Source: Euglena gracilis (taxonomy: Eukaryota). From it: DNA of 64,000 nucleotides. The notes beneath the pieces were generated by a model. That model worked only from the letters and a program-made list of their open reading frames with translations. It was not told the origin of the DNA and searched no databases. The stretch covers positions 31,830,012 to 31,894,011 of the forward strand of contig CP154954.1 in the NCBI GenBank assembly GCA_039621445.1, written 5' to 3'. The position numbers were made by a program, and so were the translations under genes. Positions 20,901 through 62,610 of the stretch are shown piece by piece; positions within the stretch are counted from its first letter, which is position 1; every line of letters starts with the position of its first letter.

Positions 20901-23900
20901 CATTACTGAACCAAATTTTGGTAACAGTGCAAGTGGAGTCGGAGCCTGAATGCAGCGCAAACAGCTTCACACTGCGGCGCCTTGCAGGTCACCTACAACC
21001 CACACATGGGGTAGATCACACACATGCATATACCATTTGGCCGAAGTGACGGACGACGTTAGGAGATTTTAGAGCAATCCTGCAAACACTGATTGGGGAA
21101 CGTTCTCCTTAATAGCATTTATCTGATAAACTTGACTGCGAGGGGGGGCGAGGGGCCCACCCTCCCATCCCCACCCCTGCCGCACACCCGCATCAAAGCC
21201 ACCGCCGACAGGAGGCCCTCCCAGGCCTGCCGCGTCACCAGCACGGCCCCCATCGTGTGGGCCTGCCTCCCGTTGCCGGCACAGAGGGCCCGGAGGGGTC
21301 GGGCGTGGACCGCTGGGTCCCATCGCGGAGCACCCACCCACCCGCCACACCTTCCTTCCAGTCGGCGCCGTCCTCCGGCCAGGGGGAGGCCCCCAGGCCC
21401 CCTCCTCCCACCGCATCATTGACCGGGGGGACCCAAACACACGCCCCTCGCGGGAGGGGACGCCAACCTTTGGCCGCCCGCCACCGAAGGCGAAGGGGGC
21501 CGGCGTCACGGAAGCCGCCCCTCTGGAAAACCCCGGCCCCGGCGGCTTCCAAGGAGTCGGGCCCGGGGCCGTCTGGACGGATGGAGGCTGAGGTTCTCCG
21601 GGTCGGCCCCCCCCCCCCCCCCCCCCCACCACTGGTGGAAGGCCTCGGCCCTCTGTGGTTGGCGAACCCGACGGCCAGCTGGGCTCGCGCCTGCTCCTCC
21701 TCCGCGATGCAGGTGGCCCGGAACGCCCTCGAGCCTGTGGCATGGCACAGTGGCCGTTGTTGAGCCTTTCAAATAATACAAAATAAAACAGCCCCCCCCC
21801 CCCGAGGCATAATCCTCTTGTTGGGCTGGTGTTTGGGCAGTTGGTGAAAATCCGGGGGGGGGGTTAAATGACAATGCAAGGTCAATGGGGGGGGGGAGTG
21901 ACACCTGCCAGCCTGCAAAAACCGGTGACAGCTTCATGGGAGAGCCATTAGTGGTTCCAACATGACAACCTGCTGGTGTGGTCCAAAATGACATTTCCTG
22001 GGTCGGTTGCAACTTCCAGGGGGGGGGGGTATGGTACACACCCAGGGCTAATCCTCCAGGTGGGTTGGATTTTTCACTCAAAATTTCCAGGTAAACAACC
22101 AAAAAGCCTTCAAAAATGCCATTTTTGGCAATTGACCTCCCCCCAACTTTTTCGGCAGTTTGCATTAAAAAATTCTTTTGTCCAGCCCATCTGGCCCCAA
22201 CTTCATTTCAGCGGACCCCCTGGGGGGTCTGCAGTCTGGTTGTTAGCTGCTGGCTCGAAAAAAGTGTCATTGGCTGGTACCCCAGGAGGGGGTTGGGTGA
22301 CCAGTGGCTTAAGCAAACCCCCCCAAGACACCCCCCACACCCCCTCCATCGGCACACCCTCCAGCAGCGCGTGCCCCCAGAAGGCGATGGACTCGGTCGC
22401 CCCGTCCTTCCCTGCACCGCTGATGGCCACCGCCGGCGTCGGCATCCGCCCCGCCCAGCGTCACATACGGCGCAGCGGCCCCCCGCAGGGCATTCCTTCC
22501 AACCCCCGGCGAAGGAGTGCCCTGGCCTTTGGGGAGCTCCCGACACAGGCCCACCGGGTGGGAAAAGCGGCGGAGGCGTCTGCGGGGGCCGTGGGGCGCA
22601 AAGATGCGAGGCCAGGGGACCCTCGGAGCGATTGCCACCCTGGGGCATACGTGCCTGGCCTTGCCAGCCACCACCCACAGTTTTAGATGCTACGGAGTTG
22701 CTGCAGAGCGTGCAGGGATGGCTCGAGCTGCTGCTCAGGCATTATTTTTTAAGGCGCCTGGAAAAACCTTAAATTTTTTTGGCCAAAATGCCTTACAAAG
22801 CCTTCAAAAAACTTCAGAAATTGGTCCTGGATTTAAAGATGTCGCTAATTTGGCCAATATTCGTCTCCGACCAGGGGGAGGGTGGTCGTTAGACAAGGGG
22901 GGTGGGCCCCAGGTCGGCAATAAATTGGCCACATAGGGGGGTATTTGGTCATTTTGGACAACTTTGGGCTATTTTCGGCATTTTTGACGACTTCTGCCAT
23001 TTTTTGGCCACTTTTGGCCATTGTTTGGCCACTCTTGGGATTTTTTGGGTCACTTTTGGCCATTTTTTTGCCACGTTTGGTTTCATTTAGCCATTCTTGG
23101 CCACTTTTGGCCATTTTTGGTTTCTTTAGCCATTTTTTTGGCCACTTCTAGCCATTTTGGGCAACATTTGGTCACTTTTGACAATTTTGCCCCAAATTCA
23201 GGCCATTTTTGCCCATTTTTGGCCATTTTTGACCAACTGGAATCAAATTTCAGCCGTTTGGAACAAGCTCACACTTCCATAAATTTGAGTCATTTTGGGT
23301 GATTTGTAACCATTTTGGGGAGCTTTTGGCCTTTTTTTGTGCCGTTTTGGCATTTTCTGCCATTTTAGGGTGGTAATCCCAAACAAATCGCAAAAAAAAG
23401 CATCACTGGAACATGCAAATGCAACTAAACCAAAAATAAAATCACACATTTTTTTTCGTAGTACTGACCCAACATCGTAAACAAAAAGATCGTCTCTGAC
23501 CGGGGGGGGGGTGGTCGTCAGACAAGCCCGGTCGTTGGACAAGGGGGGGGGGGAGGTGAGAATAATGCCTGCCGCTGCTCAACGGTCAGCCGCCCGACAT
23601 CGTCAGAACACACACCGGAACACTGAGGGTCATGCCCCCTCACCCTCAGAAGGGGATTAATCAGACTTGTTTACTGTGGTTTTCACAATTTTTTTCCCTC
23701 TCCATAAATTACTGTTGACTCTCCATGGTTTCGAATTTCAGACATTTGATTGACTGCTTTTTTTTCTGAATTTTCTGTGGAGAGTACCCCCCCAAAAAAA
23801 ATTAGACCCCACCAAGGCCCCCCAAAATAAAAGCTCCCGACGGCGCAAAGAACTGGAGATAGTGAAAATTTCTTCTGAAATACAGGGAAATGATGAAAGT

Positions 23901-61000: not shown

Positions 61001-62610
61001 AACGGCGACGATGATGAGACACCTCTTTTCGGGGAATGTGAAGGGTAGCAGAGGTCGACATCAAAATTTTGGCGAGGTCGATACCGAAATACCGAAATTT
61101 TGGATAGGTCGATGCCGAAATACCGAAATTTTGGCGGCGTCTCACCAATGCCCAGAGTGCCCAGGGGGATGGGCCGCAGCGGCAAAAAAACACTTCCATT
61201 CTTTTCAAACAAGAGCGTCCCGACCGGGGGGGGGGGTGACGCCAAGGGGCCGCTGGCCCTCCATCTTCATCTGGCACATGATGCGGGAGCTCTCCCGGCC
61301 AGGGCTGCAGGGGAAAGCCTGGCGGGGAGGGGTTGTCGGGACCCCCCCCCCCGACCACCAGGATGGGGGTGGGGGGTCGACCCCCCCCCCATAAGGTTGT
61401 GGGGATTCCTGCACAGCCCTGCTCCCAGCACATCTGCTGCGCCTTGGAGGAGTGCACCGGGAAGCCCGCCCCGCCGTTGGCGAAGATAGTGGCGTTCTCC
61501 GGCACCATGAACACCTGTGGGGGGCGGGGGCAGCACTGCCAGCGGACGAAAGGCTGACTTTCGGAACGTACGCAAATGTAAGCTACGGGGGGGGGGGGTC
61601 TCAGGGGGAAAATTTGTGGCCTGGGTGGATAGCCGGGCCACTGTTTTCTTGCTGGTTTCTTGCAGTTCCCGTGAAATTGCCCGATTCCCATCGCACTTTG
61701 GGGGCCATCCTATGCTCTACCGCCGAACGAAAAGCTGCACAGCACGTGCTGCGCCATCAGCCGTGTTGCAGAGACGGTGCCGTCCCCAGCGGATAATGCT
61801 GCAAGGGCGGGGCCAACCACGCACCGCCTGCTGGCAGGCGCGGCACAGGGCTGGGGAGCACACGGACCTGGGTGCCCAGGGACCGGAGGTAGTCCGCGAT
61901 GGTGGAGAGCGCAGTCGTCTTACCTGCGAGGGAAACCGGCAGGCGGGGAGGGACGTCATGGGTGGGGGGTGGTTCCAGACTGATGGGGGTGGCGGCAGAC
62001 TCCGTGCTGCACCGAAGAGGCGGCGCGGGGTTGCACGGGAAGGTCTGGGGGCCGAACCCCACCCCCACCACAGCACCGCACAAGCGTAAATTCCTTTGGA
62101 GCCGAAGAGAAAATTTAAAAAATTCCCCCCTCAAATCCGTCCTGGTGGGGGGGGGCGCCCACAAGAAATGGGAGAGGGTCGACCCCCCACCCACCACCCA
62201 TATGGGGTTTCAGGCCTGGGATGGGGATGACAAAGAACACAGAACGTTATTATACAACCCAACGGAAGAAGAGCGCCAAAGGGGGAGTCGAAATCATCAT
62301 TGAGCATGGTCCACCGCAAGAGCAGGAATTTCCGGAAGGACGGCACACCCCCACAGGGCCCTCCCGTCAGGACGATCCGGAACACGTGGGGCACCTCCTC
62401 CACCACCTCCGGCTCCAGGACAGATCATTCTCCATAGTTGTGGTGCGTTGTTTGGGTTTGGTGGGGTGGGGGTGGGGGGGGTGGTTAGGGACAGCACGTC
62501 TCCAGGTCCGCGTCGAGGTCCAGCTCCGGCGGCTCATGGATCGACGCCGGGGCCCTCTCGAGGCCGGAGGCGCCAGCGTTGGGCACCACTTGAGGGCTGG
62601 CTCCACGGTG
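52069..62610 (-). CDS. Gene 1: TTD14/NadR-type P-loop NTPase (AAA_28) with CYTH-like C-terminal region; multi-exon, 5' end unresolved
   Basis: Exons: ~62498-62607, 62349-62415, 61868-61923, 61425-61514, 61259-61294, 60502-60597, 59386-59416, 59041-59195, 58590-58720, 56980-57081, 56646-56721, 56338-~56415, 55083-55193, 53550-53741, 52800-52892, 52069-52143 (TGA). Spliced protein contains FRIVLTGGPCGGKTT (Walker A), VFMVPENATIF, VVLCDRGTMDAAAY, RYDAVIHLHSTAIGAEDYYTLSNNQARRE, WKGHPHVEYIDNSTDFPQKI, then SVRVRRQR, EERAIDAKEYFSLLKQ, RRCFEYNDTYFQLDEY and LLLSVE..VTLPPWI. This matches the TRPL translocation defect 14-like family as I recall it; no database search was run. Confidence 0.9.
52229..52395. 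mobile_element. hAT-like MITE (CAGGGCTG TIR)
   Basis: cccagggg|CAGGGCTG ... CAGCCCTG|cccaggga (7/8). Interior is similar to ~54033-54180. Confidence 0.78.
52471..52596. mobile_element. 126-bp hAT-like MITE with perfect 17-bp TIR and perfect 8-bp TSD
   Basis: ggcacggg|CAGGGTTTGATATAAGG ... CCTTATATCAAACCCTG|ggcacggg. Confidence 0.92.
57099..57400. repeat. (ATAC)n/(ATGC)n microsatellite in an intron of gene 1
   Basis: Directly visible. It ends ~17 nt from the CAG acceptor at 57082. Confidence 0.97.
59196..59385 (-). other. Nonconventional intron, N6 variant (GGC CAG...CTG AGGGCC)
   Basis: Stem CAGGGA/TCCCTG. Needed to restore EQMGW|QTDMLREERYDAVIHL. Confidence 0.78.
60598..61258 (-). other. 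Nonconventional intron (GGC CAG...CTG CGGGG)
   Basis: Stem CAGCGG/CCGCTG. Join QMKME|DCFIQIAK. Confidence 0.85.
61295..61424 (-). other. 130-nt nonconventional intron equal to MITE family B (61300-61421) plus 8 nt
   Basis: Plus strand ctcccggc|CAGGGCTG ... CAGCCCTG|ctcccagc (7/8). Join QQMCW|ESSRIM. Confidence 0.9.

Follow-up and report, generated by a model that had tools for sequence, protein, structure and literature searches.

We analyzed a 64-kb window (the whole stretch of DNA studied here), which is Euglena gracilis nuclear DNA, and found that its nonconventional (NC) introns carry the remains of an eight-base direct repeat across their two junctions. We consider it likely, with a probability of about 0.8, that the NC introns of this locus are the RNA-level image of insertions of cut-and-paste DNA transposons, similar to MITEs (miniature inverted-repeat transposable elements), with an 8-bp target-site duplication (TSD). 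A transposon origin with a decaying 8-bp TSD is well supported for this locus. The junctions share an excess of identity eight nucleotides wide, the spacers between paired termini and splice sites sum to eight, free elements with the same termini are flanked by intact 8-bp duplications, and the identity shows a trend with intron age. The origin of euglenid NC introns and the reason for their odd cut sites have been a question for about 30 years. What is new here is that published hints are made quantitative and that the splice ruler is equated with the TSD length.

All statistics on NC introns come from 23 introns in three genes, every one of which was modelled on the minus strand:
Gene A, ~26.9-35.3 kb, minus strand: 216 amino acids; exon match to EG_transcript_20991 at 98%; no Pfam domain on record.
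Gene B, 38.3-45.7 kb, minus strand: tandem paralog of gene A.
Gene D, 52.07-62.5 kb, minus strand: AAA_28-domain protein (PF13521); exon 100% identical to EG_transcript_6081 (575 amino acids).

The proteins of genes A and B share 104 of 202 aligned residues (51%). Gene D (52072-62541) mixes intron classes, with eight GT-AG introns alternating with six NC introns, and its conventional introns have a C-rich tract and the consensus CAG|GT.

For genes A and B, contigs of three sequencing runs, which are guessed to be RNA, were placed on 26790-44680 together with raw RNA reads from a fourth run. This placement gave 15 joints and one loose end running on past 45490. Intron B1, the sixteenth of this stretch, was deduced from contig piece lengths, reading frame, and paralogy. 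The RNA-defined subset (n=17) comprises the 15 joints, the loose-end intron B8, and intron B1. For gene D, exact peptide matches of EG_transcript_6081 were chained and every protein-preserving junction was enumerated, which yielded the six NC and eight GT-AG introns from protein matching without RNA. Removal at the mRNA level is thus supported at non-GT-AG borders by 15 RNA joints, one loose end, and six protein-matched introns. The register among slide-equivalent junctions was picked by stem pairing alone and never by repeat identity, and the 23 introns were taken without selection on score. The gene D junction at amino acids 107/112 was dropped because the window differs there from the transcript, and a candidate intron at 21275-21660 was left out of all statistics. 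In DNA as GC-rich as this, ab initio prediction of NC introns from stem, open reading frame (ORF), and codon score returned hundreds of false candidates that overlap one another, and it was not used. A preliminary description of this stretch, made from the letters alone, had proposed several of the same junctions. Four of them agree with RNA joints within slide ambiguity and a fifth (44367-45490) is backed by the contig loose end, while those at 52144, 59196, 60598, and 61295 agree with the exact spliced match to the 575-residue transcript protein.

We compared exon positions -5..-1 plus intron positions +1..+3 at the 5' junction with intron positions -5..-1 plus exon positions +1..+3 at the 3' junction. 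The mean identity was 4.26/8 in the 23 NC introns versus 2.89/8 in non-self pairs (shuffle standard deviation 0.25), and 0 out of 100,000 shuffles reached the observed value, so that the permutation of junction pairs bore out the preliminary description. All nine octamer scores quoted there could be reproduced (7, 7, 7, 6, 6, 5, 5, 5, and 6 for 21275-21660), but its chance level of 2-3/8 was recomputed to ~2.9/8 because of common base preferences. The excess was found in the RNA-defined subset (3.88 versus 2.94, p=7e-4), in the six protein-defined introns (5.33 versus 2.67, p=0.002), and in the 19 introns with a spacer sum of 8 (p=3e-5). Nine introns scored at least 5 (3.1 expected), five at least 6 (0.68 expected), and three at least 7 (0.14 expected), and no intron scored 0-1, versus 3.5 expected. 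When the five best introns were removed, the remaining 18 still averaged 3.61 versus 2.73 (p=8e-4).

The observed and shuffled identities at the individual positions were 0.52/0.36, 0.61/0.35, 0.52/0.27, 0.43/0.28, and 0.52/0.27 from -5 to -1, and 0.70/0.66, 0.43/0.23, and 0.52/0.48 from +1 to +3. The excess is located at -5..-1 and +2, while +1 and +3 are near saturation from common G and C preferences. Identity scattered around expectation at -6 to -20 and at +4 to +16, and displacing the 3' window by 1 to 4 nt in either direction removed the excess (2.0-2.8 versus 2.1-2.5). The elevation is thus restricted to -5..+3, as the preliminary description had anticipated, with edges that are partly forced by the stem. 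The informative point is that the excess reaches -5 and -4, and it is not junction microhomology. As a control, the eight GT-AG introns of gene D showed no excess (4.88 versus 4.70 in non-self pairs). The high identity of these introns is wholly due to the consensus CAG|GT, and the shuffling absorbs such effects. Equal scores of shuffled pairs, which the preliminary description had named as the sign of base preference or GC content, were therefore found for GT-AG introns and not for NC introns.

The NC introns and their junction scores are as follows:
A1, 27066..27467, minus strand: RNA joint; position common to B1; spacer sum 7; 3/8.
A2, 27608..28473, minus strand: RNA joint; 3/8.
A3, 28505..29639, minus strand: RNA joint; 2/8; nested element M4 inside.
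A4, 29692..30036, minus strand: RNA joint (slide 4); missing in paralog B; GCCATGCC/GCCTTGCC, 7/8.
A5, 30092..32353, minus strand: RNA joint; position common to B5; 5/8.
A6, 32391..32896, minus strand: RNA joint; position common to B6; 2/8.
A7, 32942..33363, minus strand: RNA joint; position common to B7; 3/8.
A8, 33498..34801, minus strand: RNA joint (no slide); paralog-specific position; 5/8.
A9, 34856..35259, minus strand: RNA joint; paralog-specific; 4/8.
B1, 38686..39111, minus strand: deduced from contig piece lengths, frame, and paralog alignment; 3/8.
B2, 39191..39832, minus strand: RNA joint; paralog-specific; 4/8.
B3, 39894..40784, minus strand: RNA joint; 5/8.
B4, 40815..41625, minus strand: RNA joint; CTG/CAG termini; 4/8; nested element M5 inside.
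B5, 41713..42932, minus strand: RNA joint; 3/8.
B6, 42970..43865, minus strand: RNA joint; spacer sum 7; 4/8.
B7, 43911..44249, minus strand: RNA joint; 2/8.
B8, 44367..45490, minus strand: loose end at 44371 continuing beyond 45490; paralog-specific position; GCCCTGCC/GCCCCGCC, 7/8.
D4, 61295..61424, minus strand: exact spliced match to EG_transcript_6081; GCTGGGAG/GCCGGGAG, 7/8.
D5, 60598..61258, minus strand: protein match; 5/8.
D7, 59196..59385, minus strand: protein match; spacer sum 9 (3+6); 6/8.
D10, 56724..56984, minus strand: protein match; CCG/CGG termini; 4/8.
D11, 56426..56649, minus strand: protein match; spacer sum 9; 4/8.
D15, 52144..52799, minus strand: protein match; GGGAGGAG/GGGAAGAC, 6/8; nested element M7 inside.
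Candidate intron, 21275..21660, minus strand: ORF continuity and a 9/9 stem only; TCGCCAAC/CCGGCAAC, 6/8; among the best candidates of the ab initio scan.

Next to the repeat itself, the geometry of the introns has the same length. Measured from the paired terminal triplets, the spacers between termini and splice sites sum to 8 in 19 out of 23 introns, to 7 in two (A1 and B6), and to 9, that is 3+6, in two (D7 and D11). This agrees with the genetically defined code N3...N5-6, in which 3 nt precede CAG and 5-6 nt follow CTG, as reported in PMC12501133. If the termini are transposon terminal inverted repeats (TIRs), then 3+5 equals one 8-bp TSD and removal of the intron restores the pre-insertion sequence. 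The four departures are of one base, and the paralog partners B1 and A6 retain a sum of 8, which suggests that spacer indels are tolerated after fixation.

The terminal triplets are CAG/CTG in 12 out of 23 introns and allowed derivatives in 4 more (16/23 under the strict rule); the genome-wide fit given for the published set is 61.2% (PMC12501133). The seven introns off the CDG...CH'G rule have CAA/TTG, CCG/CGG (twice), CAG/TTG, CTG/CGG, CAC/GTG, and GGG/CCC. Triplet changes on both arms that keep the pairing were found as CCG/CGG (D10, 56724-56984, and A9, 34856-35259), CTG/CAG (B4, 40815-41625), and CGG/CCG (B7, 43911-44249), and the two CCG/CGG introns are removed in mRNA despite falling outside the published rule. 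The downstream exon starts with a purine in 22 out of 23 NC introns. All five introns scoring at least 6 have CAG/CTG ends with CAGGG on at least one arm, as in the free elements described below.

Genes A (26900-35330) and B (38350-45700) are old duplicates and amount to a compact natural experiment in which introns were gained or lost. The pairs A1/B1, A5/B5, A6/B6, and A7/B7 occupy the same alignment column and phase, two further pairs are offset by 1-2 columns within a stretch rich in indels and are ambiguous, and A4, A8, A9, B2, and B8 occur in one paralog. A8 and B8 are just 4 codons apart in the alignment. The mean score was 3.13 for strictly shared introns (n=8), 3.5 for ambiguous ones (n=4), and 5.4 for paralog-specific ones (n=5). 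Exact permutation of strictly shared versus specific introns gave p=0.010 (13/1287), and p=0.0074 (46/6188) when the ambiguous introns were counted as shared. Introns with canonical CAG/CTG termini averaged 5.0 versus 3.45 for other triplets (p=0.013). A link of the score to TIR or stem length, which the preliminary description had proposed to check, failed: the correlation was negative for Watson-Crick pairs in the first 12 stem positions (rho=-0.42) and weak for the perfect stem run (rho=0.39, p=0.07), and the CAG/CTG triplet alone tracks the score. Intron length showed no relation to it. Evidently the stem is maintained by selection via compensatory changes (CTG/CAG, CCG/CGG, CGG/CCG) while the spacer halves drift. 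The earlier proposal that TSD identity could serve as a clock holds for classes of introns and not for single introns, because a single intron provides eight sites, of which half are subject to coding constraint, and the floor lies near 2.9. In the same region, a low-depth unspliced contig covers A4 and the adjoining exon (29735-30063) with 10 mismatches in 330 nt, which indicates a diverged second copy or allele also carrying intron A4.

We searched the window for free elements with the same structure in two ways. The first scan took exact inverted repeats of at least 9 bp that lie 50-4000 bp apart (1440 pairs). The perfect non-microsatellite flank repeats of at least 6 nt among them have a length of 8, with one exception of 6 nt (28900-29370), which is element M4 with the stem read one base further out per arm. 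The second scan took CAG...CTG inverted pairs with at least 10/12 complementary ends (180 pairs). Flank identity was bimodal, with 171 pairs at 0-5 and 9 pairs at 7-8, and control flanks taken 12 nt further out reached at least 7 in 0/180. From these nine, the doubtful pair 21282-24922 and M5 and M6, which lie in microsatellite context, were dropped, and six (M1, M2, M3, M4, M7, and M8) were kept. The listed MITE-like elements are:
M1, 4617..5008, 392 bp: TIR CAGGCTATTGCTTAAGGA; flanks GTCTGGCC/ATCTGGCC, 7/8; related terminus at 55281-55352.
M2, 22736..23571, 836 bp: TIR CAGGCATTATT; flanks CTGCTGCT/CCGCTGCT, 7/8.
M3, 25151..26441, 1291 bp: TIR CAGGCACCTA; flanks ACTGGGAC/ACTGGGAC, 8/8; second copy of the terminus near 3115-3176.
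M4, 28901..29369, 469 bp, in intron A3: 16-bp perfect TIR CAGGGTTGTATGGGAA; flanks GGGTGAAC/GGGTGAAT, 7/8.
M5, 41025..41323, 299 bp, in intron B4: flanks 7/8; GTGC-repeat context, weaker.
M6, 49181..50839, 1659 bp: flanks TTGTGTGT, 8/8; GT-microsatellite context, weaker.
M7, 52471..52596, 126 bp, in intron D15: TIR CAGGGTTTGATATAAGGA; flanks GGCACGGG/GGCACGGG, 8/8.
M8, 55377..55664, 288 bp, in GT-AG intron D12: TIR CAGGGGTTTTTTTA; flanks ACCCCCCT/ACCCCCCT, 8/8; C-rich context.

The TIRs of the free elements are 12-18 bp long, and the 16 ends of the eight elements comprise 7 CAGGG, 7 CAGGC, one CAGTC, and one CAGAG. Four of the eight (M4, M5, M7, and M8) are nested in introns of genes A, B, and D. 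Their flanks therefore do not coincide with splice sites of known mRNAs, and the duplications are not splice-site artefacts. The larger elements have no long ORF and are non-autonomous. For M1 and M3, second copies of the termini (83-89% identity) lie elsewhere in the window; no full-length second copy of a free element was found in the 64 kb, which is too small to decide family status. We infer that exonic introns and free elements belong to a single kind of element. A subterminal motif, GGA[AG]/TAAG near positions 11-18, was chosen ad hoc and is not relied on (3/16 free-element ends and 4/10 young-intron ends, versus 10% of control CAGG sites). Checking M1-M3 for an ORF that stays continuous once the element is excised gave no information, since long ORFs are common here.

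These observations can be brought together in a model. At insertion, the exon would have the structure TSD(8)-CAGG...CCTG-TSD(8), and the inverted termini would pair in the pre-mRNA. A non-spliceosomal machinery would then make two cuts, one lying 3 nt upstream of the 5' arm and the other 5 nt (in rare cases 4 or 6) downstream of the 3' arm. As 3+5=8, the element plus one TSD copy would be removed and an uninterrupted frame restored. At each duplicated position the exon copy would afterwards be held by coding constraint while the copy in the intron spacer would be free to drift, so identity would decay from 8/8 toward the floor of ~2.9/8. The stem would be kept by compensatory change, such as CTG/CAG, CCG/CGG, and CGG/CCG. 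The duplication may thus explain where the introns are cut, and the 3+5 ruler would exist because of the 8-bp TSD. A further step, on which we would bet slightly less than even odds, is that the asymmetric splice code of 3+5(6) nt corresponds, in RNA, to a staggered cut of 8 bp in the target; splicing would then be tuned to excise the transposon and one TSD copy, and it may have co-evolved with, or derive from, the transposon machinery.

Several points weigh against a transposon origin. The sample is small (23 introns from three genes in one 64-kb window), and six NC junctions are defined by protein instead of RNA. The sharp edges of the junction excess owe part of their sharpness to the stem, since beyond the 8-nt window one comparison partner is the conserved stem. 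The shared introns, which form the oldest class, are barely above the floor (3.13 versus 2.50 in their own shuffles, p=0.06), which makes the origin of those introns an extrapolation. No transposase was found, as 0/10 ORFs from the larger elements have a transposase domain, including the hAT domain and DDE_Tnp_IS1595. Two of the listed free elements (M5 and M6) lie in microsatellite context. The exonic NC introns have no full-length copy elsewhere in the window, and the sequence common to them consists of internal nested repeats only. A likeness between the terminus of A4 and the TIR of M7 (14/18) is, by our estimate, about chance after multiple comparisons.

We then considered which superfamily the elements would belong to. 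hAT transposons have the terminal motif YARNG and the target preference nTnnnnAn, and their transposase carries a hATC dimerisation domain and in many cases a BED finger. The 8-bp TSD length of hAT was found both in the junction windows and in the free elements. Like hAT MITEs and Ac/Ds, the elements have short TIRs beginning with CAGG/CAGGG and small non-autonomous copies, and their CAGGG/CAGGC termini may resemble the hAT terminal motif and Ac-type ends. Of the 16 free-element ends, 7 (CAGGG) fit YARNG, and in the five youngest introns at least one arm has CAGGG. Unlike in hAT MITEs, no hAT transposase was found among the 10 ORFs, and the target-site motif was not evident: the TSDs of the free elements have T2 in 4/8 and A7 in 2/8, and in the 23 introns the 8-mers derived from the exon show T2 in 5/23 and A7 in 11/23. 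Ac/Ds elements are reportedly spliced out of maize transcripts, an observation of Giroux et al. 1994, as cited in PMC3935182. An 8-bp TSD with CAGG(G) ends fits hAT and also Merlin, so hAT is plausible and Merlin is possible. Were the elements Merlin (IS1595-like) or of another superfamily with 8-bp TSDs and not hAT, which we consider possible though rather unlikely, the transposon origin would stand and the label would be wrong. Two Merlin families with near-perfect TIRs and 8-bp TSDs have been described in the E. gracilis draft genome (PMC8101967), and the elements agree with Merlin in species, 8-bp TSDs, and near-perfect TIRs. Merlin elements have TSDs of 8-9 bp, which the length found here fits, and encode a DDE_Tnp_IS1595 transposase. 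In our literature search these were the only 8-bp-TSD transposons found reported for E. gracilis, and no hAT report for euglenids was found. Unlike Merlin, the window has no DDE_Tnp_IS1595 ORF among the 10 ORFs of larger elements tested. The preliminary description had called most of these introns aged hAT-like insertions. The decayed 8-bp TSD of a DNA-transposon insertion stands, while hAT is no more than a plausible affiliation and "most" is too strong for an oldest class so close to the floor.

A much less probable alternative is that the junction repeats are scars of double-strand-break repair, left by fill-in of staggered breaks and capture of foreign DNA, and were not made by a transposase. 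Milanowski et al. 2016 interpreted the 8-nt repeat of a new E. agilis intron in this way, and new introns of Daphnia show short direct repeats, as cited there (PMC4770533). However, break repair predicts variable repeat lengths, and the length here is 8 both in the register tests and in the free elements. It also predicts no conserved inverted termini, and the free elements have CAGG...CCTG ends and TIRs of 12-18 bp in several copies or families.

It is very improbable that the similarity just reflects base preferences at splice sites or GC content, or that it comes from a machinery that needs look-alike cut sites. Positions +1 and +3 do match at 0.66 and 0.48 even in shuffles, with G and C preferred at +1/+3 of both intron and exon. 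However, the shuffles preserve these preferences and yet give 2.9 versus 4.26, the GT-AG introns have no excess, and neighbouring positions show no effect of regional composition. Knock-in assays further showed splicing of non-slidable natural introns, and fully artificial 50-bp NC introns built to the code splice normally; in the available part of PMC12501133 their design features list no junction repeat, and spacer sequences are not stated. As little credence goes to the idea that NC introns multiply as RNA, through reverse splicing or through re-insertion of the excised circles, with the repeats made in the process. NC introns are reportedly released as circles (Guminska 2021, cited in both PMC11282704 and PMC12621601), but a re-inserted intron would bring its old 3-nt and 5-nt spacers with no identity to the flanking exon expected, and intact 8/8 duplications around elements in non-coding DNA would be left unexplained.

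A transposon origin is also in line with earlier proposals. A MITE-like origin of NC introns was proposed in 2014 (Milanowski et al., PMC3935182) and again by Nomura et al. 2025, who call the origin unclear (PMC12501133). A 2024 review (PMC11282704) describes TSD-like repeats and draws CAG/CTG as TIRs, and it mentions neither "hAT" nor "8 bp". Our literature search, with many subscription papers and supplements outside its reach, found no paper naming hAT with Euglena NC introns and no paper linking an 8-bp duplication to the 3+5 code. The introns described here have the features of euglenid NC introns as given in PMC12501133 and PMC3935182 (N3-CDG...CH'G-N5-6|R), namely paired termini, spacers of 3 nt and 5-6 nt, a purine at the exon start, and slidability, which in E. 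agilis has been reported for 84.4% of all introns and 69.1% of the NC introns (PMC12501133). In the available parts of these two papers the repeats are a nuisance in boundary calling; here, in contrast, they fill the 3+5 window, exceed shuffles, and fade with age. The closest single case is intron 4 of gapC in E. agilis strain ACOI 323, which is strain-specific and recently gained and has direct repeats of eight nucleotides, which exceed those at other introns in length (Milanowski et al. 2016, PMC4770533). Like the high-scoring introns here, it is a young NC intron with an intact junction repeat. It differs in being one case that was read as a break-repair scar, and the published account, as far as available, has no statistics, no link to 3+5, and no free elements.

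The introns also resemble the introners of Micromonas, Aureococcus, Fritillaria, and dinoflagellates (PMC11282704), in which a DNA transposon with TIRs and TSDs lies in an exon and a removal that uses the TSD restores the frame. Whereas introners depend on the spliceosome and on GT/GC-AG-type or variant sites, removal here is guided by structure, with cuts at set distances from the TIR stem that sum to the TSD length.

If splicing is indeed tuned to excise the transposon and one TSD copy, every exonic insertion of this MITE family would be silent at birth, which could explain why ~70% of Euglena introns are nonconventional. Genome-wide TSD decay would then give dates for waves of intron gain in the euglenids, and perhaps in the diplonemids. 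If the spacers are the two halves of an 8-bp TSD, the splice code gains an evolutionary explanation, the transposon family could be searched for by CAGGS termini plus an 8-bp TSD, and intron gain could be ordered in time from sequence alone.

We also noted other features of the window. Three stretches inside introns (30969-32162, 28581-29177, and 40521-42311) have very high summed contig depth, up to ~8000, in RNA-type runs. They include repeats common to several introns and the inverted copies 31115-31282 and 31297-31467, and they look like abundant transcribed repeat families. On the minus strand of 10700-25600, about 13 segments have gene-like codon usage (for example 11700-11900, 14594-14743, 14905-15087, and 18649-18852). 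This chain may be an unannotated gene, possibly of more than 2000 amino acids; a protein search with one segment, 14905-15087, found no homolog. In gene D, residues 108-111 (KELS) of EG_transcript_6081 are not recoverable at 62420-62500, as if a single base had been inserted or lost, and one S/T difference was found close to the C-terminus (52086-52090). These differences could reflect an allele, a paralog, or an assembly error. Long poly-C/poly-G runs coincide with the loose ends of many raw reads. Long microsatellites of the (ACAT)n type and (CA)n, several of them in introns, were found at 1-2750, 20438-20853, 26646-26777, 44686-44991, 53350-53450, and 57100-57400.

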